A stretch of DNA of 64,000 bases, taken from Escherichia coli (GTDB lineage: Bacteria > Pseudomonadota > Gammaproteobacteria > Enterobacterales > Enterobacteriaceae). The DNA is taken from NCBI RefSeq assembly GCF_046105845.1, contig NZ_CP151004.1, one strand, 5' to 3'. The notes beneath the pieces are model-generated. The model was given only the letters and a program-made list of their open reading frames with translations, searched no databases and was not told the origin of the DNA. How positions within the stretch are numbered: the stretch's first letter is position 1; every line of letters starts with the position of its first letter. The position numbers were made by a program, and so were the translations under genes. Positions 45,107 through 63,760 of this stretch are shown piece by piece.

Positions 45107-45219
45107 GTGGGTGTTGTGTTTAGGGCCGGGGAGAGTCGGGGTATGACTACGAAAGCCCCTAACTTAAACACGATATTACGCCAGAAGTCACCATTTCCAA
45201 AACACAACGCCGTTGTACC

Positions 45220-45390
45220 GTGGGATATCTGCCCAACAGCAGCGACACGCCGGTGATCAAAATCAGCGCCAAATGGCTGAGAGAAGCGGGATTTGAGATC
45301 GGCACGGGCGTTACCGTGAAGATCCCGGAAGGTTGCCTGATCCTGCTTGCGGATAACAACGAAGTACAGGAACTGAGGAAGGAACTTTAT
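45220..45390 (+). pseudogene. SymE-like (AbrB-fold type I toxin family) gene fragment
   Basis: From a GTG start, ...TPVIKISAKWLREAGFEIGTGVTVKIPEGCLILLA... closely resembles the SymE core (KGQWLEAAGF.TGT.V.VKV.EGCIVL). The frame then continues for ~100 codons antisense to the convergent MucR-like gene, which I regard as non-coding read-through. 3' boundary approximate. Confidence 0.4.
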
Positions 45391-45758
45391 AAGGTTAAAC
45401 AGGCTGTCTTCAATATAGAACCGGAGCGATTACGCCAGTCAGGATCTGACTTTAGTTGCCTTCTCTTTATTCTCATCATGGCTATTTGTTCTGCGGGATC
45501 AAGCTTTCCCTTTGCTATTCTCGCCTTCATATATTCAATTTGTTTCTCCAGATATGAAATCCCTGCCAGTGCGATGTGCTTCGGTATGTTCCATTTTTCA
45601 CGATATTCGTCAGCGCGTATTCCATGCACAAACCAGATATGGCGCGGTAAAAAAATGAGCAACTTGCCACACTCCAGACAGGGTATTTTTTCCCGCTTAT
45701 GATATGCCAGAACCTCTTCACGCGTTTCGAATGGCCTGTTCCTCTCTTTTTTGTACAC
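45387..45758 (-). CDS. Ros/MucR-family zinc-finger transcriptional regulator
   Basis: 123 aa with the Ros/MucR signature IPCLECGKLLIFLPRHIWFVHGIRADEYREKWNIP (C-x2-C ... H-x4-H followed by EYREKW.LP). Confidence 0.7.
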   Translation of the reverse strand: MYKKERNRPFETREEVLAYHKREKIPCLECGKLLIFLPRHIWFVHGIRADEYREKWNIPKHIALAGISYLEKQIEYMKARIAKGKLDPAEQIAMMRIKRRQLKSDPDWRNRSGSILKTACLTL

Positions 45759-45822
45759 AAAGACTCCTTTTAAAAAATGGCAAGGTCACATATCCCTTAT
45801 TGGTACATAAATCCCCCGACGT

Positions 45823-47199
45823 TTACTGACTTTGTTCCACCTTCGTATCCAGTAAAATTACATAGCGATTCAGCAACTGATTTAACCGGGTATCTATCTG
45901 CGTCAACAGCGTCGGCGAAACCTCTCCGGTCTGTTTTTGCTCTTCCAGTTGCCGAAGCAGTTCTTCCAGCGGCGGCTCCTTTAACGACTGCCGGATGCCG
46001 TACACCGCCGTTTTTAGTTCCGAGCCGGTCAGATATCTCCCCTTACGCTCATCCAGTGCATCCAGCTGCGCCGACAGGCGCTGTAGCTGGCTTTGCGCCT
46101 GTGCGTAGCCATTCAATGCCTCAGCAGACATGGCGCTCAGCTCCCGCTGCTTACGCCACTGCGCGTTCAGCGCCCTGACCTGAGGATTATCCGGCCACAG
46201 GGCATCAAGCTGGCGTAGCTGGCGATATCCCTGCTCCAGCGGCCAGCGGGCAGGCAATTTGTTTAACTGCTCCAGCTGCATCTGACTTGCCGCAATTGTT
46301 CTGTCCTGAGCCAGCAGCGCCTTATCCTTTACATCCAGCTTTGCCAGTTCGCCGCTCTCCAGCGACTGCGGCAACGGCATGACAGACAGTTGTATTCGCT
46401 GGATTAGCGCGTCCGGCTGATTAAGCTGCGACCAGCCCCATAATCCTGTTCCGCCGAGACAGGCCATCACAACCATTCCGGCCATAAATATCGGCCATGC
46501 CCGCTGCCGGGAGATTTCAGGGGATGGCACGGATGGACTGGCATCCTTATCGTTTTGCTGAGCGGGTCTGGTTGCAAAAACCGGCTGTGGACTTTCTTCT
46601 GACTTTTTCGGTTGCTTCATTTCCTTGCGGGGTAATTCAGGGGGAGTGATAGTGGTTTCCGCTCCCTGTGGTGCCAGCCGCTCCAGACGTAGCGCCGCAT
46701 TACGAAACTGCCCGGCCAGCACATCCAGTTTCGTCATATGCCACAGTTCACACTGTTGCAGCGTGGTTTCGATGGCGGAAAGATGCTGTACACAACGGTA
46801 AATCTGCGGCAGATCCTGATACTGAATATCCAGCGTTCTCAGTGCCTGCTGCATTTTTTCTGTGACCCAGCTGAGCAGTGATATTCTGGAATGTACCTGT
46901 ACCGGCCAGAAGTCGGCCCATCGCTGGAGCAGTATGTCCAGTGAACCGAGTCCGTCTGCCATCCCTGCCAGCCCCTGCCGTCTGGTTATCGCCAGTACGT
47001 AACAGACCAGCGTCTGTAATTCCACGCCATTTTGCCGGAACAGCGCGAGGCTGAGTTTTTCCACCTGACGCCAGTCCACATCCGGTCGGGCCGGGTGAGT
47101 CAGTTTACTCATTTCAGCCTGCAGTTCACCGGATTCCTTATAAGTACAGGGATCGCCGCCCATGACGAACTGGCTGATAAAATTCGCGTTACTTGCCAT
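45823..47199 (-). CDS. TssA-family (ImpA_N domain) membrane-anchored T6SS accessory protein, TagA/VasL-like
   Basis: 458 aa; N-terminal ImpA_N-like region (GGDPCTYKESGELQAEMSKL...), one central TM helix (AWPIFMAGMVVMACLGGTGLWGW), Q/L-rich coiled-coil C-terminus; last gene of the T6SS block. Confidence 0.6.
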   Translation of the reverse strand: MASNANFISQFVMGGDPCTYKESGELQAEMSKLTHPARPDVDWRQVEKLSLALFRQNGVELQTLVCYVLAITRRQGLAGMADGLGSLDILLQRWADFWPVQVHSRISLLSWVTEKMQQALRTLDIQYQDLPQIYRCVQHLSAIETTLQQCELWHMTKLDVLAGQFRNAALRLERLAPQGAETTITPPELPRKEMKQPKKSEESPQPVFATRPAQQNDKDASPSVPSPEISRQRAWPIFMAGMVVMACLGGTGLWGWSQLNQPDALIQRIQLSVMPLPQSLESGELAKLDVKDKALLAQDRTIAASQMQLEQLNKLPARWPLEQGYRQLRQLDALWPDNPQVRALNAQWRKQRELSAMSAEALNGYAQAQSQLQRLSAQLDALDERKGRYLTGSELKTAVYGIRQSLKEPPLEELLRQLEEQKQTGEVSPTLLTQIDTRLNQLLNRYVILLDTKVEQSQ

Positions 47200-47627
47200 C
47201 AGTACGCCCGCTCCTGCTGTTTGAGATGACGCAGAACAATTCGTCCTTCCGGAGAAAATACGCCATCAAAGCGTATCCAGCCGGTATCGGGAAGCTGCGC
47301 GTGGATCAGGTAATTAAGATGCCCCGGACGGGGCTGGGGGAGTAACTCCACCTGTATCTGACTCAGGCGTGGTTCATAACGCAGCAGCGTTTCTTCAATC
47401 TGACGCATCAGGCCATGAATACCCGCAGCCATCCCCTGATGGATCAGACTGAGATCCGGCAGACCGTAATCCGGCAAATGCGCCAGCGTGCCTGCCCGAC
47501 AGTTGATAATGCGTTGCATATTGTCCATCACGGAAAGGATAAGCTGATCCCGCTCGCTGACCTGTTCCAGTGGTAACTCGCCGCTGAAACTGAACGTCAG
47601 CATTTCATATAAGGAAGGTGTCGACAT
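47199..47627 (-). CDS. tssE: T6SS baseplate protein TssE (gp25-like)
   Basis: 142 aa, size and position between tssJ and the TagA-like gene with a 1-nt overlap; family call by context. Confidence 0.7.
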   Translation of the reverse strand: MSTPSLYEMLTFSFSGELPLEQVSERDQLILSVMDNMQRIINCRAGTLAHLPDYGLPDLSLIHQGMAAGIHGLMRQIEETLLRYEPRLSQIQVELLPQPRPGHLNYLIHAQLPDTGWIRFDGVFSPEGRIVLRHLKQQERAY

Positions 47628-47630
47628 CGG

Positions 47631-48167
47631 TTATTTATCCTTGAGAGGCAGCAGTCGCAGGTCGCTTCTCATCAGTTCAATCGAGCGCGGCTTGTCGGCC
47701 TCCAGTTCGTCCCTTTTGATCACCAGACGCCAGCTGTCGCTTTTTTCATCAGGGTGATAAAACTGCCCGATAATGGCGACAAACTGCGTCTCTTTATCCA
47801 GCGGCTCATTCAGGGATGCCGTGCCTTCCGGTTTTACCCAGACGGTGTGTTTTGCCAGTACGTCCTTCTCCAGCGTCTTCTCTTCCTGCATAAACAGGGT
47901 GTCATAATCCGCCTTGTCAAAATCTTCGCGGGTTTTCAGTTGCCAGACATGCACCATCGTGGAAAGCGGCGTATCTTCCGCATCCGTATTCAGGGCACTT
48001 CGGGAGAAGAAATCGAGATGCAGTATTTTGATTTGCTTGTAGAAAACGGCTGAGGCCACGCTTTTCGATTCATCCACCACTTTCTGAATCAGCCCGCAGC
48101 CACTCAGAACAACCGTCAGCATCGCCATACAGAGCAGCGCCGGACGTTTAAAACGAATAGGAAACAT
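47631..48167 (-). CDS. tssJ: T6SS outer-membrane lipoprotein TssJ
   Basis: 178 aa; lipoprotein signal with lipobox LSGC (MFPIRFKRPALLCMAMLTVVLSGC). Confidence 0.7.
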   Translation of the reverse strand: MFPIRFKRPALLCMAMLTVVLSGCGLIQKVVDESKSVASAVFYKQIKILHLDFFSRSALNTDAEDTPLSTMVHVWQLKTREDFDKADYDTLFMQEEKTLEKDVLAKHTVWVKPEGTASLNEPLDKETQFVAIIGQFYHPDEKSDSWRLVIKRDELEADKPRSIELMRSDLRLLPLKDK

Positions 48168-49236
48168 GAGTCATACACTCCCTGTTACGAATGGATAAAG
48201 CGGGTATTAATCCCTGATAACGCCCCAGACTGACCGTCACTGTTCCGGTCGCGGGCGCGGCAAAGGAGGCGCGAAGGATGCCGGTACGGCTAATCTGTAC
48301 GCGCTGTTTTCCCAGCCGGGCAGCAGGCAACAGGCTGACGGGCAGTGTCAGTTGCAGACGGGCCTGACAGCGCCAGCCCAGATAAACGCGCAGCAGTACC
48401 AGCAAATCGCTGTGCAGCTGTCCGCCAGGCAGCCAGCCACGCGCTTCTGCGGCATCTTCGGTATACAGTTTCAGCAGCAACTGGCTGTTGACGTCGGTGC
48501 CGGTACGCCCCAGCAGCGTTCGCGTTTTCAGGCTGATGCGTGAATTTTTTGACAGACCCGCAGGGGCCGGGAGAATAACAGGCTGCGGATCATGAGGCAC
48601 CACCGTCGCTTTCGTCAGCGGGGCAAGCAGTCCCACCAGTGCCGTAACGCCTTCCGCCGTGCGCGTCGGCAGGCGCATCACGCTGAGCAGGGCCAGAAAA
48701 CGGGATACCGGCGTGGCGATATGGTTCTCGCTGCCGGGAATACCCAGCCCGATGAGTCCCAGCAGACAACGGGAAATGTCATCCACAGCACCTGCTTCAA
48801 ACGACGCCGGGTAGTTATATTTGCGCCAGATGCGGTAATACTGGGTGATAAAGCGGTGGTTAAAAATATCGAGAAACGCCATCACTGCGTCATGTCCGTC
48901 ATGACGCTGGGTAATGTAGTCCAGATAGGCGGTTGGCAGCGGCGAATCCACGCCGTACAGGCCGAAAAAGGTGGTGCGCACCGTGGGTGGTGCGTCGGGA
49001 TTGTCCACGTCACGTTCAACGTTCTTTAACTCGCTGACCGGAAAGCCCATTCCGGGATGGGGACGAAAGCGCACCGCATCGGCGGCGGGGCTGTCGGTAC
49101 TGCCCAGCGGCGCTTTCTGTTGGCTCTGTTCCAGCAACTGGCAAAAACGGTAAAAATTGATCCGCGCAATATCCGGGGCCAGCCGGTCGGTCAGCCCGGT
49201 ACGCGCTGGCTGTGATGCTCTGTCCATTGCAGGCAC
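48148..49236 (-). CDS. tssG: T6SS baseplate protein TssG
   Basis: 362 aa; N-terminal F.F.Q.LE-type motif (INFYRFCQLLEQ); follows tssF with overlap. Confidence 0.75.
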   Translation of the reverse strand: MPAMDRASQPARTGLTDRLAPDIARINFYRFCQLLEQSQQKAPLGSTDSPAADAVRFRPHPGMGFPVSELKNVERDVDNPDAPPTVRTTFFGLYGVDSPLPTAYLDYITQRHDGHDAVMAFLDIFNHRFITQYYRIWRKYNYPASFEAGAVDDISRCLLGLIGLGIPGSENHIATPVSRFLALLSVMRLPTRTAEGVTALVGLLAPLTKATVVPHDPQPVILPAPAGLSKNSRISLKTRTLLGRTGTDVNSQLLLKLYTEDAAEARGWLPGGQLHSDLLVLLRVYLGWRCQARLQLTLPVSLLPAARLGKQRVQISRTGILRASFAAPATGTVTVSLGRYQGLIPALSIRNRECMTHVSYSF

Positions 49237-50951
49237 TTTCCTGTGGGTTGCAGAATTAAGGTCAGTTGAGTGAATAAGTGGATATCGGCATACAGTGCGA
49301 AGAAGCGGTGCAGCAGTTCACCAAACAGTGTGATATCACCTTCTCCGGCAAAGCCGTTACTGTCCAGCGTTACCTGAATATCCACGCCACGCAGCAGAAA
49401 GCCTCTTTCAAAACGCTGTATCAGGCTGTGCTGAACGTCGACAATCGCCTCCAGACGACGGCGGTTCATCTCGCTTTCGGTCCAGTCGTACAACGCCAGC
49501 GTGCCGCGCACAATTTCGGCGTTATCCATCATCGATAAAAAGTTAGAACCAAGGTGGCTGAGCACCCGCCAGTGGAAGCGGTCACGCGCCGGGGGATAGC
49601 AGGGCTGCGTCGGGGCGCACAGGTTGCGCACCCGCAGGACGTTCTGTGAGGCGTGGACTGGCGTATCGAGTAGCGTGCTCTGTAAAGCTTTACGGGGAAG
49701 CTGCCCGTTAGTGCCGGTCAGACTTAAGGACAGAGTTTCATCCTCCAGCATCCGGTCAGAATCAAACGCATCGCCGCCCAGAATCAGCCAGGTATCATGC
49801 AGGCCGGAAGGGCCGCGCTTAACCCGCGTATGGTAATAACGTTCCGGCGCATCGTGGCGCAGCATCCCGCCCCGGTGACGAAAGCTGGAGAATGGCACAT
49901 ACGCCTGACTGCCGGTATGGCGCGAAGAAATAATGTTGTCGACGGAATAAATCTCGGTATGCCCGTCCTGAATTCGCATCGGGCGCAGCAGAAATTCGTT
50001 TTCCAGTGGCGAAAGGTGTAACGGATCGGCTTCCAGCGGGAACAGGTTGATAACCGGCACGCAGTGCAGGCGGAGATTGTCGGTATTAAACGGCAAATCA
50101 TGAGGCCAGCTTTCCGCCAGCACCACGTCAATCTCAAAGCCGGTTATCCCTTCCGGCCAGATGACGTTCTCCAGCCCGTTGAGTGCCACAAACATAAACT
50201 TCTCGCGGAAGGTGAAATACTCCAGCAGCAACTGGTAGCCGCTGAACGCCGACTCGCCTTTTGGCCAGAGCCTGTCATTATCCTCAAAGCCCAACGGGGA
50301 AAAGTGTGCGTCAAGCGTCCGGCGATCCTGCCCCGGCAGACGCAACCAGAACTGCTGCGTACCAAGCGTTAAAGCCCGGTGCAGCGCACAGGCCACCGGA
50401 CTGTCGGCATTGAGATAGAGCGGCAGGCGGGATAAATCGATCTGTGACCAGTCACCGACCAGCGGGCCGCATTCAAAGCGCAGACGAATAACCGAACGTC
50501 CGTCCGGTTCATATTGCAATGACACGTCCGGCAACGCCAGCGGATGCAGCGTGATATCCCGCGTGGCGCTGTAGAAACAGCGGGTTCTGCGCTCGCCAAC
50601 AGGGCGCGACAATACCTGAAAATCGCTCAGCGTTTCGCTCTGCTTCATCTGCCGGTGATCTGTCGACAGTTCAACCACGGAAAGTGACGGGATAGTTCGC
50701 AGGTAGTGAGGCCACAGCAGGCTGACCAGCCCTTCAGTCAGCTCCGGCAGATCGTCGTCCAGCTTCTCGCGCAGGCGGCCCATTAAAAAAGCAAAGCCTT
50801 CGAACAGGCGTTCCACATAGGGATCGCGTGCGCCGGGTTTATCAAGATTGAGCATCGCGGCGCGGTCGGGGTAAGCCTGCGCAAATTCTTTCCCCGCTTC
50901 ACGCAGGTAGCGCATTTCGGCTTCGTAGTAGCGTTGGGTTAAGTCGTCCAT
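49191..50951 (-). CDS. tssF: T6SS baseplate protein TssF
   Basis: About 590 aa; start placed at the ATG of MDDLTQRYYEAEMRYL (the ORF track begins at an upstream TTG, 50990); tssF-tssG pairing. Confidence 0.75.
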   Translation of the reverse strand: MDDLTQRYYEAEMRYLREAGKEFAQAYPDRAAMLNLDKPGARDPYVERLFEGFAFLMGRLREKLDDDLPELTEGLVSLLWPHYLRTIPSLSVVELSTDHRQMKQSETLSDFQVLSRPVGERRTRCFYSATRDITLHPLALPDVSLQYEPDGRSVIRLRFECGPLVGDWSQIDLSRLPLYLNADSPVACALHRALTLGTQQFWLRLPGQDRRTLDAHFSPLGFEDNDRLWPKGESAFSGYQLLLEYFTFREKFMFVALNGLENVIWPEGITGFEIDVVLAESWPHDLPFNTDNLRLHCVPVINLFPLEADPLHLSPLENEFLLRPMRIQDGHTEIYSVDNIISSRHTGSQAYVPFSSFRHRGGMLRHDAPERYYHTRVKRGPSGLHDTWLILGGDAFDSDRMLEDETLSLSLTGTNGQLPRKALQSTLLDTPVHASQNVLRVRNLCAPTQPCYPPARDRFHWRVLSHLGSNFLSMMDNAEIVRGTLALYDWTESEMNRRRLEAIVDVQHSLIQRFERGFLLRGVDIQVTLDSNGFAGEGDITLFGELLHRFFALYADIHLFTQLTLILQPTGKCLQWTEHHSQRVPG

Positions 50952-51026
50952 CGGAGGATTTATCTTTCCTTTTATTGAAATTAATACCAACGAGTAGTGA
51001 GATTAGAATTTTTTATTTTCAGAATC

Positions 51027-51431
51027 CTAAGGACATATAGATGGATCATTTATTTCAAAAGAAAAATCGGACTCCATACTAGATGAGGATTTTTTCAATA
51101 AAGAGGAGATATGATATCCAGATAAAGTTTTAGAATTGTTACCATCAGATATCAAAATACTAAGTTCAGAAACAATATTTACAGGGTTTTTATTAAAAAC
51201 ATCTGACTCTCTACCTGTGTAAATAAAGTATACAATTGGCTTCCGCTCTCCGATATCAAGATGAAAATTATCTCTTACTTTACCATCATAATGTGTTGAA
51301 TTATTGACCGTCGAAATGTTAATAGATACTTTGCATGTATTTACCATGACAATGGAACAAGAATAGAATGGTTGAGATAAACATCCAGCACACAGCGTAC
51401 ATAATAAAAAAAAGAATATTAATCTAGTCAT
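51027..51431 (-). CDS. lipoprotein-like secreted protein; candidate immunity protein for the upstream PAAR toxin
   Basis: 134 aa; N-terminal signal peptide with Cys cluster (MTRLIFFFLLCTLCAGC...); start overlaps the stop of the PAAR-HExxH gene by 8 nt; AT-rich. Confidence 0.4.
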   Translation of the reverse strand: MTRLIFFFLLCTLCAGCLSQPFYSCSIVMVNTCKVSINISTVNNSTHYDGKVRDNFHLDIGERKPIVYFIYTGRESDVFNKNPVNIVSELSILISDGNNSKTLSGYHISSLLKKSSSSMESDFSFEINDPSICP

Positions 51432-52863
51432 GAAATTTCACCCGAGATAACCATATCATTGCACATACATCGTTTTCGACAGCAACCGACCTTGCATATA
51501 GATCACTGGTGTATATATGCCCATTATAATATTTCATTAAATCTATCTCGCCAGTTCCTGGATAAACTGAATGAGGCAGTGCATATTGAGGTGGTACAAG
51601 ATTAGAGGTCCCTTTATGCTCCCATGAATACGTATTCCCACCGTAACTTTTTAATATCATATGACCAGTCTCATGGGCTACATCAAGTTTAAATTCTAAT
51701 CCAGCCTTAAAAACAGGATCCGCGCCTTTCTGATACCCACGGCCATATTCATAATACCCCCTATTGAAATAAATGTTCATACGTCCCATAAAAGCACTAG
51801 ACCTGACGCTTTCTAGATCTTGCTCCTCAATTAAATCAAAAGAATCCATGGCTGGATCAATATTTATTGATACAGAGATATTTACATTATATTTACCGTG
51901 CGGAGTAGTAATATTATTGCCAATTCCGGGATTCCTCATTCCATTTCGTGCCCAATAATACTCTATTCCATCCTTGGCAAGTTGCTTTAATTTTTCAAAC
52001 CCTACAGGTGCAATACGATCATCTTTATGACTCACACCATCATCTTCAAATTCTACTCGCCAACTGACATCAACTATTTTTTGATTCTTGTCTACTTTTA
52101 CATCAATCCAATCTTCCTCATTCGCAGAAGTTTTCAATGGATAATCAACTTTTATCATCATATCACCACATAAAGCAATCAGTCTTACGAGTAGTGATTT
52201 GCTTTTTAGCTTAGTTGTATCCAGTATGTCTTGATTACTGTAGCCATCCCATTGCCAGGCATGCTCTCCCTTATCAAAATATTTACCGGTCTGCTGTTCA
52301 CTATAAATCACTTCATTACCATCAAGCACTTCCAGAGAAAGCGCTTCAGCCTCATCGCCTTTATTTGTGATGGTAAAATCTATTTTTTCTGTATTCTTCG
52401 TACTACCACCGCTAATCATTTCTTTATAATCAGGTATATTCAATGGCGTCAGTATCTTATTACCTGATAATTTAATTCTGTAATCCAGTTTTACATCATC
52501 TGAGGATGAATCAGAACCAGAAGTCAGATCCTTTTTCGCCGACTGCGCATGTTGTTCCGCTTCACTTCCCCCGTCATCCGTCTCATACACATCATCCATC
52601 ATTGACGCAATAAATCGCGCCTTACACGGGCAACTGCTCTGACTGTCCAGCGATCCCGCCATCAGCCTGCCGTGAATATCCGTTTCCGGCACGCCGCCGA
52701 CGATAATAAACATCCCCGAATGTTTACCGCAGGTCACTCTGTCCATATCCCGCGCCTGCGGGATACCCATGATCGTATGGTCGTCCGCCCCTTCAATAAT
52801 TTTGCCGCCGCAGGTGGTCTTATCGCCCCTGACCAGAAAATAGCCTCTTCCCATCGTCATCAC
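51424..52863 (-). CDS. PAAR-domain protein with C-terminal HExxH (putative zinc metallopeptidase-like) toxin domain
   Basis: 479 aa. The N-terminal ~90 aa fit the PAAR pattern (RGDKTTCGGKIIEGADDHTIMGIPQARDMDRVTCGKHSGMFIIVGG); then an acidic/Ser-rich linker; the C-terminal region contains HETGH. Start overlaps the tssA stop. Confidence 0.65.
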   Translation of the reverse strand: MMTMGRGYFLVRGDKTTCGGKIIEGADDHTIMGIPQARDMDRVTCGKHSGMFIIVGGVPETDIHGRLMAGSLDSQSSCPCKARFIASMMDDVYETDDGGSEAEQHAQSAKKDLTSGSDSSSDDVKLDYRIKLSGNKILTPLNIPDYKEMISGGSTKNTEKIDFTITNKGDEAEALSLEVLDGNEVIYSEQQTGKYFDKGEHAWQWDGYSNQDILDTTKLKSKSLLVRLIALCGDMMIKVDYPLKTSANEEDWIDVKVDKNQKIVDVSWRVEFEDDGVSHKDDRIAPVGFEKLKQLAKDGIEYYWARNGMRNPGIGNNITTPHGKYNVNISVSINIDPAMDSFDLIEEQDLESVRSSAFMGRMNIYFNRGYYEYGRGYQKGADPVFKAGLEFKLDVAHETGHMILKSYGGNTYSWEHKGTSNLVPPQYALPHSVYPGTGEIDLMKYYNGHIYTSDLYARSVAVENDVCAMIWLSRVKFHD

Positions 52864-54497
52864 TCCTTATGCTGCGTATCACACAGTACCGCTGCCCGTA
52901 CCGGATCGATTGTCACCAGCGTTCCCAGCAGGATTTCCATTTTTCGGTTCAGCAGGGCTTTATCCGCATAGCGGTGCGCCCGCAGGCGCAGCAGTTTCAG
53001 TTGCCGGGCTTTTACCTCAAACAGCAGTTCCGGCTCCCACTGCGTCAGCGTTATTCCCTGTGCGGCGGTATCCAGTTCTTCCAGCAGCAGGAGTGCCATC
53101 TCGTTTTTACCGTACTGTTCCGCCACCCGCGCCATCAGCAGCCGCAATAACAGGCGCTGTCGTGCCGTGGTGATGCCCGGACGGGTCTGTATCCAGCCCA
53201 GCGCCGCTTCCACGCCCTGACTGTCTGCCATCTCCAGTGCTTCCGGCTCCAGCGCCAGTACGTCATTTGTGGCGTCGTCTGTCGGTACAGCGGCTTTCCC
53301 CGCAAGCCATGCGCCGTCTTCCCGCATCATGACCTGCTGCGCTATCCAGTTGCGCGTCACCTCATCGGCGAACGGTGTGCCGTCGTTCCATGCCAGATTT
53401 TCCAGCCCCGGCAGGCGTTCCAGCAGTAACGCCAAGTCCTGACGGATAACGGCTGTCCACCTGTCCCACGGTACGCCCGCCTTAGTCAGCGCCTGATGCA
53501 GATACCACTGAATGTCCAGCCAGAAATGGCTGACGCCGGTGCTGAACATCAGGTCGGCCTGCTCCAGCAGTTCCGTCCAGTTCTGCTGGGCATACAGCCG
53601 CTTAAGCTGATTGCGTGACTCGGTGCGCGGCGGGGCCAGCCGGGTTTTGCCGTCCACATCCGGCGGCAGTTCATGCACCGTGTCCCAGCGCAGGGTTTTC
53701 ATCAGCCGGTGCGCCGAAAGCCAGCCCTGCGGCTGTTCATTCAGATAACGGGCCAGCACTTTCGCCTGGTCGAGCAGGTCACGCCCGGAGGTGATGGTCT
53801 GTACCTGTGGCGCATCCACCGGGGATGACGGTGCAGGAACGCTGCTGCTGTTTTGCGGCACCACTGCGTTCATCCCTCCCGACTGCGCCAGACGCGATTC
53901 CAGCGCGTTAATCAGCGGCATCAGGGAGGGGGAATGCTGGTCTTCGGGCCATGCAGTGAAGGAAACCGTCAACTGACTGAGGGCAGCAACAATGTTCGCA
54001 AAATCCTCTTTTGCCACTTCCGGGTAGCGGGCAAGGCTGTCGAGCATCTTTTCCCCCGCCAGCCACTCCAGCGCCATTTTCCGGCTGGCCGGTCGCGAGG
54101 GCAGCAGTTGCGTACCGAAGCGTTCCACCAGTCCGGTCAGCAGCGCCAGTCCTTCCGCCAGTCCGCGCTCACCGTCGCGGTGCAGTCGCGCCCAGATGTA
54201 GTAAGTGGCGATGCGCACGTCTTTTGCCTGCGTCAGCAGCAGGGATTCGGCAAGCTGGCAGATGAGGTCCGTATCCGCGCCGGAAAGTTTGTTCATCTCG
54301 TCGCGGATACGCAGAAAATCGTCGTGGTAGCCGGGGTCTTCCCCGACCGGCGTATCTGTCGTCACCGGCAGCAGCCATGTCTGCCACAGTGCCGCCTGTG
54401 CTCGCGCCACATCCAGTGCATCCCGGTCGGCAAAACAGCTACGGGTCAGCTTTTGCAACAGTTCACTCATCGGCGTCTTCCCCGTATTCTTCCGCAT
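52860..54497 (-). CDS. tssA: T6SS protein TssA
   Basis: 545 aa; ImpA_N signature (PVGEDPGYHDDFLRIRDEMNKL); immediately downstream of tssM with overlap. Confidence 0.75.
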   Translation of the reverse strand: MRKNTGKTPMSELLQKLTRSCFADRDALDVARAQAALWQTWLLPVTTDTPVGEDPGYHDDFLRIRDEMNKLSGADTDLICQLAESLLLTQAKDVRIATYYIWARLHRDGERGLAEGLALLTGLVERFGTQLLPSRPASRKMALEWLAGEKMLDSLARYPEVAKEDFANIVAALSQLTVSFTAWPEDQHSPSLMPLINALESRLAQSGGMNAVVPQNSSSVPAPSSPVDAPQVQTITSGRDLLDQAKVLARYLNEQPQGWLSAHRLMKTLRWDTVHELPPDVDGKTRLAPPRTESRNQLKRLYAQQNWTELLEQADLMFSTGVSHFWLDIQWYLHQALTKAGVPWDRWTAVIRQDLALLLERLPGLENLAWNDGTPFADEVTRNWIAQQVMMREDGAWLAGKAAVPTDDATNDVLALEPEALEMADSQGVEAALGWIQTRPGITTARQRLLLRLLMARVAEQYGKNEMALLLLEELDTAAQGITLTQWEPELLFEVKARQLKLLRLRAHRYADKALLNRKMEILLGTLVTIDPVRAAVLCDTQHKE

Positions 54498-57400
54498 CCT
54501 TCATACTCCTGCCGGTCAGAAATACCTGTCCCGGCAGGCGGAAATTTTTCAGCTCCAGCAGCGCCATCGGCCCTTTGCCCTGTTCAACCCGCAGCAGGTA
54601 ATTCAGCGGCAGGCCGTCCTGCGCTTTCCACACCACTTTAAAGGTACTGCTGTCCACCGGTGTCACCTGCGCCTGTTCCAGCAGACGAATTAGGCTCCAG
54701 CTTCCCCGGTAATCCGCCAGTATACGTTCCATCGCCTGCGTGCTGGTCCAGCTCAGCGATGCGCCGGGTTGCCACTGTTCATCCGGCCAGTTAAAACGCT
54801 GCCAGCGTTCTTTCTGGTTGAAATACTCCAGTTCCTGCCCGTCAATCACCAGATGTGTTTTCATCACGTCTCGGGCCGGTTTTGCCCGCAGTTCAAAATG
54901 TATTCCGGCATCGCCGCTGGCAAAGGCGGTGTCAGCCACGTCACGCAGGCGGTTCAGGGCGCGAATAAAGTCCGGGTTGACCGTCAGCCCCTGCGTGTTC
55001 ATGGCGTCCGCCACCCAGTAGCGGCCTTCACGTTTCAGAACGCCGGAAAGGTTGGCGGCAATAAACTGGTTGATGCGCCCGTCATCGCGCAGATACTGCG
55101 CCAGCAGGGGGAGGGAAGCATCGTTCTGTGAGGCTTTGAACGGGTAGCGACCAGCGAAGTCCTGATTCCAGTGGCTGACAATCGCCCGCTGCCACTGGCG
55201 GTTCAGGCTGTCCGCCGCAGGCGTCAGCACCTGCCGCCACGACTGCTCCACCGGGCGGACGAACAGCGCCTGACCGAAGCCACTCCATTCCTCGCCCAGA
55301 CTGGCGGCGATTAACCGTCCGTAGTCGCGGGTGTCGGTGAGGTCAACGGTTTTGCCCTGCAAGACTGTCTGCGCCAGTTGTTGGGTCATCTCCTGTGGGT
55401 CGGGGGCGTTGGTCACCTGTTGCAGTTTGAGGCGCACGCGGGTGACGCGGGTCAGATACGTTTGCAGGCTGAGTTGCGTATCGCCACCACCGCCTCCGGC
55501 CTTATCGCCCAGCAAACGCAGCAGCGGCGCGAAGGTTTTATCCAGTGGCCCGACAGGCACGTCGTCTTCACGGGATTGCTGCGGCGTTTTCTCCTTGCCG
55601 TTAAACAGTTCCTGTGCCGATTTCGCCAGCGAGTCCGACAGGCCACGGTTTTCCCTGCCAGCCGCCGCCTGCCAGGCGAGGGTGTCCGTCAGCGCAATCA
55701 GCGGCGACTGACGGGCATCGGCCATCAGCGTCAGCTGGTCGAGAATGCCGGAGAGTGAGTCTTCCTTTTTCCAGCGAATGCTGTTGAGAAACGCCAGCCA
55801 GCTTCCGGCAAAGTCGGTAAAGTAGCGTGAGGTGAGACGGTTACGCAGCGTATCCGGCGAGATATCCGCAGAGGTATCCTGCTGGCGGTCGCTGAGTACC
55901 CAGTCGATTTCCTCGCGCCGCGCCGTCACCACCTGCTCGATGGCTTCCCTGACCTGTCCTTCCCACGCCTGACGGGTGAACATCCCCGGCACCGTCTGTT
56001 CCGTACTGAAAAGAGATTCGGTGAGCGTATCCCCGGTCATGTCCGCCAGCGTCATATCGGCGTAGTTGCGGGACACCTGTTGCAGTACGTTCTGGTAGAG
56101 GGTGTTTTCGGCATTGCGCACACCAATCTGGCGCAGCAGGATTTTACGCACCGCGCCGGTCAGTTCCGGTGGCGGCGAGGTTTTCCACTGCGGGTGTTCC
56201 GGCAGGTTCGCCATCCAGAAGGTCAGCAGTGACGGCAACACGCTCTGACGCACACCTTCCGGGATATTTTCATAGCGCAGGCCGTCCGCCATCAGCGTGG
56301 TACTGAAAAAGGCAGCGTCGGCCTTTTCCGGGCGGGAAGTCATCAGCAATGCCTTAAGCTGCTTATAGCGTTGTTCACCAGTGGCGGTACGCTGAGGACT
56401 GTTGGGCGGCAGCGCGACAAAGGCGTTCAGTTGCTGTTGCAGATGGTCAACGGCCACGTCGCGCACCAGCCGGTTTGCCGCCTGTGCATAGCCAGGAAAG
56501 GCGGCGGCGAGCAGTTGCTGGTTACGTTCAAGGCCAAAACGCTGATACCACGGCGCACCTTCGCGGATACGATATTGCAGGCGCTCCAGTTCGCCCTGCA
56601 GGGTATGCAGCGCCACCAGTTGTTCAGACAGCGGCAGCCGGGTATCAAGCGCTCGTGCAGTCTGGATGCTGGTTTCCTGAACAAGCGCGCGGTTGGCGAA
56701 GAAAGAGGTCGTCATTCCGGCCCCCCATATCGCCAGCATGCAGATGCCGCTTATCAGCGCGGCGCGTAGCCACGGAAAGCCCACTGTACGCCCCCGTGCG
56801 TTATCGCCGGTCACGCCCGCCCAGACCGGTGACGGCAGCCACGCATGAGGTGCGGCCTCCGGTACGGCGGTAAGCGGCGGGCTGAACATCAGACCGCGCA
56901 GGCGCAGGGAAGAGAATGCGCCGCCTGCCAGCAGCGGTTTCAGGACGGTCTGCCAGTGAGCGATACCCCGCTCTGCAAGGGTATGAGCCAGACGCAGCAG
57001 GAAATCATGGCGGTTATCGGTCAGCAGTTGCGACATGCCCTGTTCCGTCAGCGGCAGGGTTTGTGCTTCCAGCATTACAGCCAGTTGTTCCGGGGGACAG
57101 CGTTCCGGCAGCAGGCAGCCGACGCTTTGCAGAGGGCGTCCGGTCTGATAATCACCGTTGTCACAGACCTGCCACAAATAGAGTGGGGCCTGAAAACCGA
57201 GTCGCTTACTGCCGTTTATCAGTTCGCGCCAGCCTTTGTCGAGTTGCGCTGTCTGGCGGCTCTGTTCTTCTGTCAGCGCCCAGATGATGCCATCCAGCGG
57301 ACGGCTGCGACGCAGTTTTTTTAAGGCGGTCAGCAGTGTGACATCAGGCTCCGCTGATGGCCTGCCGCCATATATCAGCACCGTGTGGTCGCCCTCCAGC

Positions 57401-57852
57401 CAGTGTTGCCCGGTCAGCCCCGGCGCGATGGCTTCTGCCTGTTCAGGCTCGCCGGTCACCTGCAGCAGGCGGACTTTACGCCGCCAGAACGGACCGTAGC
57501 GGTCGCGCAGGAAGGCGGCGAGTTCCACCATTGCCGGATGACGGCTGTCGGCTTTCTTTGTCGTCACCGCCCGATAGTCATCCCCGGCGGCAAGCTGTCT
57601 GCGGAGTTCAAAGTTCTGTACGGCAGCGTGGCGGTTCAGCAGATGATAAACCCCCATGATAATCAAAAAGACCACGCCTGCGGCAATCACGCCCGCCATC
57701 CAGTACATCTGCTGCGGGCTGCCCGGCTCGACGCCCAGCAATGCCGGTTTACGGTGAATGAGCGTACAAAGTGCAACCACGACAGCCACGGTCATGACGA
57801 TTACTGGCCCTGAGAGCGAACGGGGCCGGAGACGGCTTAATCCCGGAACCAC
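54463..57852 (-). CDS. tssM: T6SS membrane-complex protein TssM (IcmF family)
   Basis: About 1130 aa from a GTG start at 57852-57850, 8 nt after an AGGAGG RBS and overlapping the upstream stop by 1 nt (alternative ATG at 57798; the ORF track extends to 58113). Two N-terminal TM helices, a third TM around residue 430, large C-terminal domain. No Walker A seen by eye. Confidence 0.8.
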   Translation of the reverse strand: MVPGLSRLRPRSLSGPVIVMTVAVVVALCTLIHRKPALLGVEPGSPQQMYWMAGVIAAGVVFLIIMGVYHLLNRHAAVQNFELRRQLAAGDDYRAVTTKKADSRHPAMVELAAFLRDRYGPFWRRKVRLLQVTGEPEQAEAIAPGLTGQHWLEGDHTVLIYGGRPSAEPDVTLLTALKKLRRSRPLDGIIWALTEEQSRQTAQLDKGWRELINGSKRLGFQAPLYLWQVCDNGDYQTGRPLQSVGCLLPERCPPEQLAVMLEAQTLPLTEQGMSQLLTDNRHDFLLRLAHTLAERGIAHWQTVLKPLLAGGAFSSLRLRGLMFSPPLTAVPEAAPHAWLPSPVWAGVTGDNARGRTVGFPWLRAALISGICMLAIWGAGMTTSFFANRALVQETSIQTARALDTRLPLSEQLVALHTLQGELERLQYRIREGAPWYQRFGLERNQQLLAAAFPGYAQAANRLVRDVAVDHLQQQLNAFVALPPNSPQRTATGEQRYKQLKALLMTSRPEKADAAFFSTTLMADGLRYENIPEGVRQSVLPSLLTFWMANLPEHPQWKTSPPPELTGAVRKILLRQIGVRNAENTLYQNVLQQVSRNYADMTLADMTGDTLTESLFSTEQTVPGMFTRQAWEGQVREAIEQVVTARREEIDWVLSDRQQDTSADISPDTLRNRLTSRYFTDFAGSWLAFLNSIRWKKEDSLSGILDQLTLMADARQSPLIALTDTLAWQAAAGRENRGLSDSLAKSAQELFNGKEKTPQQSREDDVPVGPLDKTFAPLLRLLGDKAGGGGGDTQLSLQTYLTRVTRVRLKLQQVTNAPDPQEMTQQLAQTVLQGKTVDLTDTRDYGRLIAASLGEEWSGFGQALFVRPVEQSWRQVLTPAADSLNRQWQRAIVSHWNQDFAGRYPFKASQNDASLPLLAQYLRDDGRINQFIAANLSGVLKREGRYWVADAMNTQGLTVNPDFIRALNRLRDVADTAFASGDAGIHFELRAKPARDVMKTHLVIDGQELEYFNQKERWQRFNWPDEQWQPGASLSWTSTQAMERILADYRGSWSLIRLLEQAQVTPVDSSTFKVVWKAQDGLPLNYLLRVEQGKGPMALLELKNFRLPGQVFLTGRSMKDAEEYGEDADE

Positions 57853-59066
57853 TATGATGCCTCCTGCGGTAAAACGAACGGCGACACCACGGTCGCCCAT
57901 GAATAATGTCCACCCTGAACGCCGCTGAGCGTCAGTTGGGGTTGTTGTAAATGCACTGACGCCAGCGCCGCAGCGGCGACGGACAGCCACGGCGCAGCCG
58001 GGCCGGAGCGCCCCAGAAAGGCATCCAGCTCGTACATCAGGGCTTCCTGAGCAAACGGCTGGTTCAGGCTTAACAACGCGGCACGCTGTTCCCTGTCCAG
58101 TTCGGCAGTCCACATGCCGGATATTGCATCTGGCTGCACCGGCATCCAGTCCAGCGCCTGTGCAATGCCTGACACCATCATCTCTGTATCAGTGATACGT
58201 TCAGGACGATGCAGCAGGGCCAGCGGCGTCAGCGCGGTTTGCGTCAACCGGTTTGCCAGCAACAGCGCGGTGGCGGATTCTGCCGTCCGTTCCGGGTTCT
58301 TCGGTTCAAGTCGTACGGAAATCACCAGCAGTACGGCCTTTTCCTGAATAAAGTTGTCCAGCCAGTCGTCCACGGCGGCCAGCCCCGGCTCCGGGGCAGA
58401 AAACAGACGGGCTTCCGGGAGTCCGGCTTTTTGCCATTCGTCCTGCCAGATAGCCATAACCGTTGACTCAGAAAGCGACGTACTGGTTTCTAAAAGCACG
58501 TTGATATGAAAATCATCGGGTAGCAGCGTCAGTTGCAGCCTGATATCGCTGAACAGACGGGAAAAAACTTCGGATAGACGTCCGGTAACCGGTTTATTGG
58601 TTAATACAGGGATGACACTGCGACGCACAGTATCTTCTCCGCGCAAATCAGCGTAAGTATTCAACACCTGCTGACGCGCCAGAAATGCTGTTGTAGTTTC
58701 TGCAACGGAATCACCATTCAGCGCGGTTTGTACGGAAAAACTGAGTATCTGCAACGCCCGTCGTCCCCGTCGCGTTTCCTGCAAAATCACCTCTTCCCGG
58801 CGCTTATTCCAGGCATCAGCCCGAATGTACTGCGTGATAAAAAACAGCCAGCGAACTGAAGCAACCAGCGACCAGATAAAGGCAGGCACACCACAGGCCA
58901 GCCCCCAGAAATACGGGCCGTTTTTTGCCAGTTCATCGCTGGCAAATAATGAAGTCAGGGCCACACCTGTGGACAGCATCAGTAATAAGGCTGACAGCCA
59001 TTTAATGCGGGCTGGCGGTGTGGGATAGGGTTCTGCGTCGGGAATGGCATGGAGTCGAACAGGCAT
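57852..59066 (-). CDS. inner-membrane protein of unknown function, translationally coupled to tssM
   Basis: 404 aa; two N-terminal TM helices (WLSALLLMLSTGVALTSLF; FWGLACGVPAFIWSLVASVRWLFFI) then a ~300-aa soluble domain with no motif I recognise; GC-rich like the core tss genes. Confidence 0.4.
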   Translation of the reverse strand: MPVRLHAIPDAEPYPTPPARIKWLSALLLMLSTGVALTSLFASDELAKNGPYFWGLACGVPAFIWSLVASVRWLFFITQYIRADAWNKRREEVILQETRRGRRALQILSFSVQTALNGDSVAETTTAFLARQQVLNTYADLRGEDTVRRSVIPVLTNKPVTGRLSEVFSRLFSDIRLQLTLLPDDFHINVLLETSTSLSESTVMAIWQDEWQKAGLPEARLFSAPEPGLAAVDDWLDNFIQEKAVLLVISVRLEPKNPERTAESATALLLANRLTQTALTPLALLHRPERITDTEMMVSGIAQALDWMPVQPDAISGMWTAELDREQRAALLSLNQPFAQEALMYELDAFLGRSGPAAPWLSVAAAALASVHLQQPQLTLSGVQGGHYSWATVVSPFVLPQEAS

Positions 59067-59126
59067 AAAAATAATCCGCTATTAAATTAGGTATATGATG
59101 TGGTTATATCCCGCTTTTCGATTAAA

Positions 59127-59504
59127 TTACTCTGATACATTTATGGTATATATTTTGCCAAACCGTCCTCTGCCACCACCACCTATGGAGAATCCTCCGA
59201 TTTCAATGACTATCGCCCCTTTTACAACAGGGATACCCTGAACAATAAGGCAACTATTTTGGTCTGGCTCAAAAACATCAATAGTCAAACCCGAATTCTC
59301 AGGCCTGAAATCTTTCAATGGAAAAAAAGGTACAGGCCCAACTCCTCCTGAAATCTCGATTTTTGCATAGTAACTCTGACCTAATTTTGCATCAGGCAAG
59401 GAGTCTGGGGAAACAGTAGTTTTTGGGATGATTAGCATATGTAAACATCCAGTTAGTGATATTGATAATGAACATATGAGTAAAAATTGAATTGTCTTTT
59501 TCAT
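59127..59504 (-). CDS. small lipoprotein; candidate immunity protein
   Basis: 125 aa; lipoprotein signal MKKTIQFLLICSLSISLTGC; ATGA start/stop overlap with the upstream gene; Gly-rich C-terminus; AT-rich. Confidence 0.45.
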   Translation of the reverse strand: MKKTIQFLLICSLSISLTGCLHMLIIPKTTVSPDSLPDAKLGQSYYAKIEISGGVGPVPFFPLKDFRPENSGLTIDVFEPDQNSCLIVQGIPVVKGAIVIEIGGFSIGGGGRGRFGKIYTINVSE

Positions 59505-60361: not shown

Positions 60362-60448
60362 AATAACCTCCTTCAATAAAAAATCAAAAAAAAACACAAG
60401 TTACATTTTACTCTAAATATAACTTGATTGATTAACAATTAAAGAAGA

Positions 60449-61252: not shown

Positions 61253-61258
61253 TCCCTG

Positions 61259-63760
61259 CTAGTCGATCAGAACTTCAGGAAGTATTAATTCAACCTTTAT
61301 TTCCTGATCATTGTCTCTATTAAAGTTTTCTGTGTTTCCGTTATCATCAGTTACTCCCTCCTTTTGCGTCCCTTCAGCAAAGTATGCAATATATTTTGTG
61401 TTCGCATAAGGTATGCCATAATCATCCACAAAGTGAAACTGAAGGTTATATTCCCCGCTCTCAATCAACGGAAATGCCATTAGTTCCGGCGTCAGCTTCG
61501 CCTTCGGCTTACGACCGTAATATCCCGCCTTAACGTTATATTCTCCCGGCGTTCCAGCTTCTATCCCGCAGGCATCCAGCCGGATATAGCTGCCACCGCC
61601 GTTTAGGGTGATTTTCTTCTTCGCGGTGATCTTGATCTCATCTTCCGTACTGGTGATCACTATCGATTTCTGAGCCAACAGTTCCATCAGATCGTTCTGT
61701 GCCTGTACCGAGATCGCCCCCTTGTTGGCAAACAGCTTGATACCCGCTTTGCGCACAAACACGCTCAACGCCTGACCCACACCGATAAACATATTCTTCA
61801 CAACACCGATATCAGCGTGATTTCCTGCGTTCGCGATCAGGTTTTTCGATGCCGCCAGTTGCAGGTGCTCTCCGCTGGCGATCGCCACGCCTTTGGGTGC
61901 GCTTAGCAGGATCGCAGCCTGCGTCAGATCTTTTACACTCTGCTGCAACAGCGCTATCTGTGATGACAGATCTGCCGGATCGGCATTCGCCGTCTGCGCA
62001 TCAGTGGACAGCGACTTCATCTGTGACTGTGCGCCATCCAGTATTGCCATCGCCGGAGCCATTTCGCGCACCTGACCCTGCGCCTTGTCCTGCGCGTCGG
62101 CGCTGATAAAGATGCCTTTCTTTGCCCGCACCGCGCCCCACAGATCGGTACGCAGTTCAAAGCCTTCCCCGCGCTGCTGTTTCCCGGCGTCCACCAGATG
62201 ACCGAGGTTTAGCTGGCTCTTGCCGCCGTACTCGGTACTGACCTTGATATGCTCTTTGCCGCGCTCGTCATCCAGCCGGATTTTGTTGTTTGCCGGGGTG
62301 CGCAGCACGTTACGCTTGTAGTTCTGGATGGTCACATGGTCGGTGTGCGCCGAGTCGTGCTTTACCCCGGCGATATACGGTCGGTCCGGGTTGCCTTCCT
62401 CAAAGGCGATACTGACTTCCGTTCCCGCCAGCAGCGGCAGGTGCAGGCCGTAGGTGTCTCCCGCATACGGGCGCGACTGGCGCACCCACAGGCTTTCATA
62501 ACCCGGTTTCCACGTCTCGCGGTCAAAGTCGAGGTTGACCCGGTAGCGCCCGTCCTTGTCGATATGGGCATAGATATCGTTCTTCACCGTGCTGGTGACC
62601 CGCGCCGGGAGCGTTCCGGCCATGACCGGGCGGGGGATAAACGCCGGGCGGTAGCCGTAGCGTTCTGAGTACGGGATAGCGGTAAACGTCAGTTCATAGC
62701 TGCGGTCACGCGCCGCGCTGGCCGTCACGCCGGTAATCAGTACGCCCTTGCGGAACACCGCTGGCGCGTCGTCGCCCTGAACCCTGATTTCCAGCCCCGG
62801 CATCAGCAATGAACTGGTGCTCTGGCCTTTGAGAATGGCCTGTTCATTCAGGTAGCGTTCGTGGCGGATACGGGCATAAAACGCGCCGCTTTCCGCTGAT
62901 TCCTGGTCGCCTTTTTGCAGGAAGTTGTCGGCGTAGTGATAGGCTTCGCCGTAGGTGGTGTTATCGCCCCCGGTGGCGTCATGCTGCTCTGTCATCATCT
63001 CTGCTGTGGCGGTGCGGTAGTTGTAGTCCCGCGTGGTGACGCTTTTCTCCACCACGCTGTATGCCGTGTTCAGCCCCCATACGGCTTCCGTTTCACCATC
63101 AAACAGCCCTGAAGTATGGCGAAGCGGCAGCGTCAGTCCGCGCTCGTAGCCGCTCTGGTCGTCGTAAAACTCGACAACCTCAATTTTCAGCCGGGCGTCG
63201 GTGGCAAAGCGGAACCAGATACCCACTTCCGACAGCAGGCGTGAAATAAACGTCAGGTCGTCCTCACCGTACTGCATCACCTGTTCACGGGACGGGTATT
63301 CGCTTTTGAGGTTAAACACGAAGTCCTGACCGCGCATCTGATGCCGCTCGCGCAGGATTTTTTCGACGATTTGCGGCACCGTCAGATTCTGGTAGATGGC
63401 GTTCTGGCGGCTGCGGGCCAGCAGTGCCATACGGGGTTCAAGGCGCACTTCGTAACGGGCTTCATCCTGTGACGAGGAGAGATGTTTAAAGCCAGTAATG
63501 ACCCCGTACAGGGTGCGCAGGGGGGCCTGCACCGGCATTCCCTGTACGGGCGGTGCCGTCAGGCTGAATGCGCCGTCCTGCATCAGCACCGACTCCGGCT
63601 CGATGGCTTTATCGGTACTGGTAAACTTAATGTCGTAGCGGAAGGGGGCGCTGAGTTGCTCACTACCCGTAAAGGTCAGCACGTCCACCGGGCTTTTCAG
63701 GCTGCGAATTTTGAGCTTGTGGTGCGCGTGGTTAAAGTTTAGGGCAGGAATATTCATCAT
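61259..63760 (-). CDS. vgrG: T6SS spike protein VgrG with C-terminal extension
   Basis: 833 aa; gp27/gp5-like VgrG body, beta-helical region, then an extra ~100-aa C-terminal segment (...ELMAFPLIESGEYNLQFHFVDDYGIPYANTKYIAYFAEG...). Confidence 0.85.
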   Translation of the reverse strand: MMNIPALNFNHAHHKLKIRSLKSPVDVLTFTGSEQLSAPFRYDIKFTSTDKAIEPESVLMQDGAFSLTAPPVQGMPVQAPLRTLYGVITGFKHLSSSQDEARYEVRLEPRMALLARSRQNAIYQNLTVPQIVEKILRERHQMRGQDFVFNLKSEYPSREQVMQYGEDDLTFISRLLSEVGIWFRFATDARLKIEVVEFYDDQSGYERGLTLPLRHTSGLFDGETEAVWGLNTAYSVVEKSVTTRDYNYRTATAEMMTEQHDATGGDNTTYGEAYHYADNFLQKGDQESAESGAFYARIRHERYLNEQAILKGQSTSSLLMPGLEIRVQGDDAPAVFRKGVLITGVTASAARDRSYELTFTAIPYSERYGYRPAFIPRPVMAGTLPARVTSTVKNDIYAHIDKDGRYRVNLDFDRETWKPGYESLWVRQSRPYAGDTYGLHLPLLAGTEVSIAFEEGNPDRPYIAGVKHDSAHTDHVTIQNYKRNVLRTPANNKIRLDDERGKEHIKVSTEYGGKSQLNLGHLVDAGKQQRGEGFELRTDLWGAVRAKKGIFISADAQDKAQGQVREMAPAMAILDGAQSQMKSLSTDAQTANADPADLSSQIALLQQSVKDLTQAAILLSAPKGVAIASGEHLQLAASKNLIANAGNHADIGVVKNMFIGVGQALSVFVRKAGIKLFANKGAISVQAQNDLMELLAQKSIVITSTEDEIKITAKKKITLNGGGSYIRLDACGIEAGTPGEYNVKAGYYGRKPKAKLTPELMAFPLIESGEYNLQFHFVDDYGIPYANTKYIAYFAEGTQKEGVTDDNGNTENFNRDNDQEIKVELILPEVLID

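Follow-up and report, generated by a model that had tools for sequence, protein, structure and literature searches.

A PAAR-borne metzincin-like HExxH domain and its lipoprotein partner: a probable effector-immunity pair in a type VI secretion cluster of Escherichia coli

Introduction

What is encoded by the gene pair that separates tssA from tssF in a type VI secretion system (T6SS) cluster of Escherichia coli? The pair, found in a 64,000-nucleotide stretch of contig NZ_CP151004.1 (RefSeq assembly GCF_046105845.1; hereafter, the window), consists of a gene for a PAAR protein whose C-terminal domain carries an HETGH motif and an overlapping gene for a 134-amino acid (aa) lipoprotein-like protein. 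The initial annotation had read it as a horizontally acquired specialized PAAR toxin with a periplasmic immunity protein. The architecture part of that reading is supported by the PAAR domain, the metzincin-like fold of the catalytic domain, the lipoprotein partner, the positional homologs, and the swapped C termini described below. With a probability of about 0.8, the pair represents a periplasm-acting T6SS metallopeptidase effector and an outer-membrane lipoprotein that serves as its immunity protein.

Domain architecture of the PAAR protein

Both open reading frames (ORFs), their 8-nucleotide (nt) overlap, and the HETGH motif are present on the minus strand, as the initial annotation had them (Table 1). 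The longer ORF extends over positions 51424-52863 of that strand and encodes 479 aa if read from a GTG; the residue numbers used here follow this 479-aa reading. The ATG at 52854 is the likely real start of the effector gene, since it is preceded, at a distance of 8 nt, by a perfect AAGGAG and since the resulting 476-aa product equals in length WP_001518860.1, an E. coli protein of 96% identity that RefSeq lists as a PAAR domain-containing protein of 476 aa. This AAGGAG sits within the final codons of tssA. At the other end of the gene, the sequence ATGACTAG, with which the partner ORF starts, spans the last codon and the stop codon of the toxin gene.

The N-terminal PAAR assignment was confirmed by a match to the Pfam family PAAR_motif (PF05488) at residues 13-70 (E value of 2.7e-9, score of 37.6) and by a predicted structure that has the conical beta-structure fold of solved PAAR proteins. 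A full-length AlphaFold2 (AF2) model, built with 24 homologs (mean predicted local distance difference test score [pLDDT] of 82.7), shows four parts. The acidic Ser/Asp-rich linker anticipated in the initial annotation corresponds to residues 89-124 and is disordered in this model, with pLDDT values below 50 at residues 89-122. An immunoglobulin (Ig)-like domain between the linker and the HETGH domain (approximately residues 125-250) had been missed in the initial annotation, and the C-terminal domain, an alpha/beta domain in the model that had been supposed to begin near residue 330, has an earlier start, near residue 250. The Ig-like domain accompanies the catalytic domain throughout the family.

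The N-terminal part of the protein is found with other C termini as well. The same PAAR N terminus (70-86% identity over the first 100-170 residues) elsewhere bears Ntox44, S-type pyocin/colicin E3, DUF2235, or Aspzincin_M35 C termini, and it appears to be a polymorphic carrier.

Fold and conserved residues of the catalytic domain

When residues 246-479 were modeled alone with 148 relatives, AF2 returned a structure with a pLDDT of 96.3 and a predicted template modeling score (pTM) of 0.93 that has the metzincin catalytic-domain fold. The order of its secondary-structure elements (helix, beta-sheet, long HExxH helix, C-terminal helices) agrees with that fold, and all structural neighbors of the model are metzincin-type protein endopeptidases, with the eukaryote-acting or host-directed metzincins (ADAMs, snake venom proteases, fragilysin, and EcxA) among the closest folds. 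In the same 148 diverse relatives, whose mean column identity is only 10%, residues E398, G400, H401, and Y445 are invariant, and conservation reaches at least 90% at H397, H416, E439, D441, M443, and D465. The resulting family motif, AHExGHxxLxxYGG...H(K/R)G(T/S)S...GEIDLMKY, includes a possible Met-turn, read from the sequence alone, in which M443 and the invariant Y445 lie within GEIDLMKY. The predicted fold is metzincin-like rather than nonenzymatic, and the H-E-x-x-H residues are invariant or nearly so; a zinc-binding metal site and peptidase activity may be expected of this domain.

The placement of the domain, in the initial annotation, outside any toxin family that could be named held up against the databases. 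In Pfam (E value of ≤10), the toxin matched only PAAR_motif and, weakly and at chance level, FlgD_ig on the Ig-like part; NCBIfam gave no significant match, with hits at chance level only. A search of 40 diverse members of the family against Pfam (E value of ≤0.1) found no other family matching the Ig-like plus HExxH (Ig+HExxH) module, and there was no Pfam profile match for the module to the named families Tox-MPTase2-5, Aspzincin_M35, Reprolysin_4, and Peptidase_M64. Single-sequence and profile searches of PDB sequences (E value of ≤10) produced no match other than a motif-only alignment with YME1 (E value of 0.31).

The partner lipoprotein and its homologs

The 134-aa partner has the signal peptide MTRLIFFFLLCTLCAG↓C (with the arrow marking the cleavage site), a conserved Cys33, and the C-terminal residues ICP. 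Lipobox and sorting were judged by pattern inspection. A lipobox of the form L/I/Q-A/S/T-G-C is found in 5 of 6 homologs, with G16 and C17 invariant, and the position +2 after the lipidated Cys is Leu, Thr, or Ser but never Asp, which suggests sorting to the outer membrane. The two conserved cysteines, Cys33 and Cys133, similarly suggest a disulfide formed in the periplasm.

In a word-index search, the 134-aa protein alone retrieved only E. coli copies that are at least 97% identical to it; its divergent relatives were found through synteny and, afterwards, by profile search. Full-length homologs of the toxin, 50-69% identical, are encoded downstream of tssA in Salmonella, E. fergusonii, Citrobacter, and Lelliottia (and directly precede tssF in all of these except Citrobacter), and each is followed by an ORF of 139-142 aa with the same 8-nt overlap. 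These positional homologs of the partner, together with another E. coli allele, share 22-32% identity with the window protein and retain the invariant Gly-Cys of the lipobox, Gln20, Tyr23, Asn31, Cys33, and the C-terminal Cys-Pro (Cys133). The lipoprotein-like character ascribed to the partner in the initial annotation is thus borne out by its lipobox and by the conservation of its position across genera. The profile search brought the number of relatives to 32, all of them unnamed and all enterobacterial save one labeled Acinetobacter sp.; Pfam recognizes no domain in these 32 proteins. Two very distant relatives of the toxin are also followed by a small lipoprotein-like gene: the relative fused to OmpA and PG_binding domains, in which the next gene overlaps by 8 nt and has the lipobox LLAA↓C, and an Hcp-fused relative.

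Distribution and exchange in E. coli populations

Among 5,426 complete E. coli genomes, 78 carry the whole cassette and 79 (1.5%) carry the DNA of the catalytic domain, while the partner gene is present in 907 (∼17%), in 905 of them at a coverage of at least 80%. Approximately 828 genomes, therefore, hold the lipoprotein gene without the cognate toxin domain, and such an excess of toxin-less partner genes is the pattern classically associated with immunity to an antibacterial toxin. Strain NC101 is one of the gut and extraintestinal E. coli that carry the cassette.

In strains 131 and E302, the slot is filled differently. The toxin there has 472 aa and matches the window protein at 92-100% identity as far as approximately residue 250, beyond which the identity is only 32-56%. 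Behind it come a 140-aa lipoprotein of its own (24% identical to that of the window) and, next, a copy of the window-type partner gene that is intact but orphaned and unannotated. This arrangement indicates that the catalytic domain and the lipoprotein form the unit of exchange and that replacement of the toxin head leaves the earlier antidote in place. Over 405 nt, the window gene differs from the two orphans by 12 synonymous and 4 nonsynonymous changes, with a ratio of nonsynonymous to synonymous polymorphism (pN/pS) of 0.09; the comparison with the cognate copy in strain N64 gave a pN/pS of 0.13. All three copies that were translated (two orphans and one cognate) are intact 134-aa ORFs. The unannotated gene occurs both beside the toxin (NC101) and as an orphan (131 and E302) (loci L009, 1628-2035, and L011, 2501-2905).

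The Ig+HExxH family

A profile search with the Ig+HExxH module matched 551 cluster representatives at an E value of ≤0.001, 232 of them at ≤1e-30, and most of the 551 matches span the entire 360-residue module. The HExxH motif is present in 161 of the 162 members examined. The carriers recognized by Pfam in 40 diverse members were DUF4280 (PAAR-like) in 8, TssD/Hcp in 4, PAAR in 4, and eCIS_core in 1; LysM, OmpA, and PG_binding_1 each had a single match, all in one protein (P0132). Such a spread would be expected of a polymorphic toxin cassette that travels on contractile-injection carriers and acts at the cell wall or in the periplasm. The module forms a large unnamed family, new but of a well-known kind.

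Protein P0132, a metagenomic sequence of 848 aa, has LysM, OmpA-like, and PG_binding_1 domains fused to the Ig+HExxH module and is encoded at locus L013, positions 5001-8016. It has no obvious signal peptide, there are no T6SS genes within 5 kb of its gene, and a lipoprotein gene follows with an 8-nt overlap.

The papers that could be searched held no description of this family and no mention of the accession numbers of its E. coli and Salmonella members, which leaves room for a description elsewhere. Surveys of Salmonella effectors report other metallopeptidase effectors (Rhs-M91/Tox-HopH1 and 243-aa cargo proteins with Reprolysin_4 or M64 domains, to which STox_19 of a 2026 table may correspond), their coverage of this PAAR family not being established, and the subject of a preprint on Shiga toxin-producing E. 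coli (STEC) is Rhs toxins.

Proposed mechanism and competing explanations

In the favored scheme, the PAAR domain would cap the VgrG spike of the same cluster, the product of the only vgrG gene in the window being its presumed docking partner, and firing of the T6SS would drive the whole protein into an adjacent Gram-negative cell. There, the Ig-like plus metzincin-like module would act in the target periplasm as a zinc peptidase and prove toxic by cleaving an envelope substrate, which could be a protein or lipoprotein or else a peptidoglycan-associated peptide. The producer and its kin, and many nonproducers too, would be guarded by the cotranslated 134-aa outer-membrane lipoprotein, facing the periplasm and probably disulfide-bonded, which presumably binds the catalytic domain, blocks it, and so neutralizes it directly.

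Several observations weigh against this scheme. The extended metzincin consensus HExxHxxGxxH/D is absent from the catalytic domain, where Leu occupies the Gly position and Tyr the position of the third ligand. This leaves, as candidates for the third metal ligand, H416, which follows the GG break, and D441 or E439, a few residues ahead of M443. The lipobox of the window partner, LCAG↓C, is noncanonical in having Cys at -3. Finally, in nearly every complete E. coli genome with the 134-aa gene, the RefSeq Prokaryotic Genome Annotation Pipeline (PGAP) makes no call for it. In the full-length AF2 model, the active-site helix breaks at G408-G409, so that H416 could fold back to the metal. Other gene callers do call the 134-aa gene, which forms a cluster of 236 sequences.

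Within the favored scheme, the nature of the substrate allows for a more specific variant, in which the toxin is a peptidoglycan-directed metallo-endopeptidase that cleaves stem peptides, cross-links, or the Lpp-peptidoglycan link and lyses the target. A few relatives are fused to peptidoglycan-binding domains, which points to the wall as the substrate: besides P0132, which joins LysM, OmpA-like, and PG_binding_1 domains to the module, P0243 has a PG_binding_1-like N terminus and P0131 an M23-like one (both read by eye only). The predicted periplasmic location of the immunity protein would fit this variant, and many T6SS effectors of this cluster type target peptidoglycan (PMC10469887). The fold, however, points to protein, as all structural neighbors are metzincin-type protein endopeptidases and none has the LAS, M15, or M23 folds usual among peptidases that act on peptidoglycan. 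In addition, peptidoglycan-binding domains occur in only a few of the ∼160 members, and the C-terminal domain of VgrG2b, functionally the closest studied case, showed no peptidoglycan hydrolase activity (PMC6899460). A peptidoglycan substrate can, on balance, be entertained only tentatively.

A secreted metzincin that degrades host proteins, with the lipoprotein being unrelated or a chaperone, would be consistent with the eukaryote-acting and host-directed metzincins among the closest folds and with the presence of gut and extraintestinal E. coli, e.g., NC101, among the carriers. Such an anti-eukaryotic role is nevertheless highly improbable, given that the catalytic domain and the lipoprotein are swapped together, that ∼828 genomes have the lipoprotein gene alone, for which a host-directed effector provides no rationale, and that lipoprotein partners recur across phyla. 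Least credible is a self-processing or structural accessory role of the HExxH domain at the PAAR tip, next to a nonfunctional 134-aa ORF: the empty PGAP annotation over that ORF in almost every genome and the lack of Pfam or NCBIfam matches beyond PAAR in either protein would agree with it, but the pN/pS of 0.09-0.13 over 405 nt with three intact translated copies, the lipobox and two cysteines kept at 22-32% identity in the positional homologs, the calling of the gene by other gene callers (236 sequences), and the presence of the module on Hcp, DUF4280, and extracellular contractile injection system (eCIS) carriers, as is the case for toxin domains, all contradict it.

Comparison with known systems

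The functionally closest system is the Tpe-Tpi family, which includes the C-terminal metallopeptidase domain of Pseudomonas aeruginosa VgrG2b with PA0261 and the Tpe1-Tpi1 pair of Acinetobacter baylyi (Wood et al. 2019, PMC6899460). Toxins of this family act only from the periplasm and only with an intact catalytic Glu; their immunity proteins reside in the periplasm and depend on disulfide bonds, with orthologs in Enterobacteriaceae that are predicted outer-membrane lipoproteins and a Salmonella arizonae Tpi ortholog that fractionated with the outer membrane; and the VgrG2b C-terminal domain may release lipoproteins from membranes (all from PMC6899460). The Tpe/VgrG2b C-terminal effectors have been reported with a Pfam M91 domain (PMC8867033). 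Like Tpe-Tpi, the window pair, as far as can be told from its sequence, has an HExxH metallopeptidase domain covalently fused to a T6SS spike component, and it resembles that family in architecture, in its lipobox, and in a conserved pair of Cys residues. Unlike in Tpe-Tpi, the carrier is PAAR and not VgrG, the catalytic domain is always preceded by an Ig-like domain, and the immunity proteins, in which Pfam recognizes no domain, show no sequence relationship to those of Tpe-Tpi. Sequence comparison, the Peptidase_M91 profile, and the top-ranking structural matches revealed no similarity to Tpe/VgrG2b. By analogy, the window protein appears to work like the Tpe-Tpi family without being a member of it.

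The catalytic domain resembles the metzincin clan (adamalysins/ADAMs, pappalysins, archaemetzincins, matrix metalloproteinases [MMPs], astacins, and serralysins) in fold and differs from it with respect to HExxHxxGxxH/D. With specialized PAAR effectors, such as Tse6, PAAR-Rhs, and the Yersinia PAAR-DUF3289 protein T6EC1, whose T6SS operon is drawn with tssM, PAAR, and tssA (PMC11148199), the window protein shares the N-terminal PAAR domain, the variable C-terminal toxin, the downstream immunity gene, and the displacement of C termini that leaves orphan immunity genes behind. In contrast to these effectors, its toxin domain belongs to no named Pfam toxin family, and the breakpoint of exchange falls within the toxin module itself, where the Ig-like domain meets the catalytic domain (approximately residue 250).

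These comparisons allow for a broader interpretation, which as a whole is doubtful: the Ig+HExxH module would represent an undescribed metzincin-like clade with a noncanonical metal site (HExxH and a distal His/Asp, with Tyr replacing the third ligand) that serves as a contractile-injection toxin in Proteobacteria and Bacteroidota, attacks a new periplasmic target (e.g., the linker that joins lipoproteins to their lipid anchor or the tether between Lpp and peptidoglycan), and has as its antidote a widespread, unannotated compatibility determinant of E. coli.

Genomic neighborhood

Coordinates of the pair, its domains, and the neighboring genes are listed in Table 1. The PAAR effector and lipoprotein genes occupy a slot between tssA and tssF, with tssM and tssG found, besides vgrG, farther out in the same cluster. 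The true start of tssF is probably the ATG at 50951; the RefSeq length of TssF is 586 aa.

Table 1. Features of the T6SS cluster discussed in the text (window coordinates)
Feature	Position	Strand	Evidence or comment
tssA, upstream flank of the slot	52860..54497	-	TIGR03362, E value of 1.7e-142
Specialized PAAR effector gene	51424..52854	-	476 aa from ATG at 52854; 479 aa from GTG at 52863
PAAR spike-tip domain	52600..52854	-	Approximately residues 1-88 (479-aa numbering), GC 0.557
Acidic Ser/Asp-rich linker	52492..52599	-	Residues 89-124, predicted disordered
Ig-like beta-sandwich domain	52114..52491	-	Approximately residues 125-250, conserved WxWDGY motif
Metzincin-like HExxH catalytic (toxin) domain	51427..52113	-	Approximately residues 251-479
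HETGH motif	51661..51675	-	Residues 397-401, by translation
Putative immunity lipoprotein, 134 aa	51027..51431	-	8-nt overlap with toxin gene, positional homologs, pN/pS
tssF, downstream flank of the slot	49191..50990	-	TIGR03359, E value of 9.7e-172
vgrG, only VgrG spike gene in the window	61259..63760	-	TIGR01646, E value of 6.5e-135
267-aa protein with HEMSH motif	60449-61252	-	Weak Aspzincin_M35 match only, E value of 0.057
298-aa protein, hydrophobic N terminus	59501-60397	-	
125-aa protein	59127-59504	-	Lipobox SLTG↓C

The G+C (GC) content of the core genes, including tssA and tssF, is 0.57-0.61. Within the slot, the PAAR part has a GC content of 0.557, the linker one of 0.48, the Ig-like domain one of 0.36, the catalytic domain one of 0.377, and the partner gene one of 0.30. 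Because the drop comes past the PAAR domain, the foreign-looking DNA starts there and not at the start of the gene. Judged by GC content, the proposal of an AT-rich, acquired pair accordingly fits the post-PAAR part and the partner gene but not the PAAR segment; in T6SS clusters of this type, the PAAR gene as such is a resident gene of the slot between tssA and tssF.

The T6SS island adjoins fadE and a gene for a YafV-like amidohydrolase (window positions 44327-45823), and a tRNA scan of positions 44000-64000 found no tRNA genes flanking the island. The cassette's best match in strain NC101 lies in a cluster beside argA/amiC rather than fadE and the yafV-like gene, which means that the same cassette is found in T6SS clusters at different chromosomal sites.

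A second AT-rich block (window positions 59127-61252, minus strand, GC of 0.34) lies directly downstream of vgrG and encodes three proteins, none of which had a match in NCBIfam. Judging from the products listed in Table 1, it is probably a separate VgrG-linked metallopeptidase effector with its immunity gene(s). A kinship between the PAAR toxin and the HExxH protein of this block was considered and rejected, as hhalign gave a probability of 1.6% with coverage of the motif only.

The slot differs in content among related genera. In Citrobacter (locus L006, 7982-13425), the pair is followed by more PAAR genes, each with DUF1240 genes after it, and by a tssA (VasJ) fragment, an arrangement that suggests that PAAR toxin cassettes were duplicated or inserted in series in this slot. 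In E. fergusonii (loci L004 and L005, 8466-8933), a CdiI_5-family immunity-like gene between the lipoprotein gene and tssF is a probable orphan immunity gene for a different type of toxin in the same slot. In Lelliottia (locus L007, 4078-4362), a gene for a 94-aa AcrVA2-like protein (an anti-CRISPR family) is located between tssM and tssA.

Significance

The mechanistic class of this toxin is an expected one, but its family is large and has no name, and the atypical metal-site motif makes it a test case for the variation of metzincin-like sites. If the proposed function is confirmed, a widespread toxin domain family with 551 representative clusters would join the catalog of interbacterial weapons. 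The orphan immunity gene, unannotated and present in ∼17% of E. coli genomes, is a concrete lead. Since this antidote gene is missed by standard annotation, genome-based predictions of which gut and extraintestinal E. coli can kill which others, ST131-type strains among them, would be blind to it.

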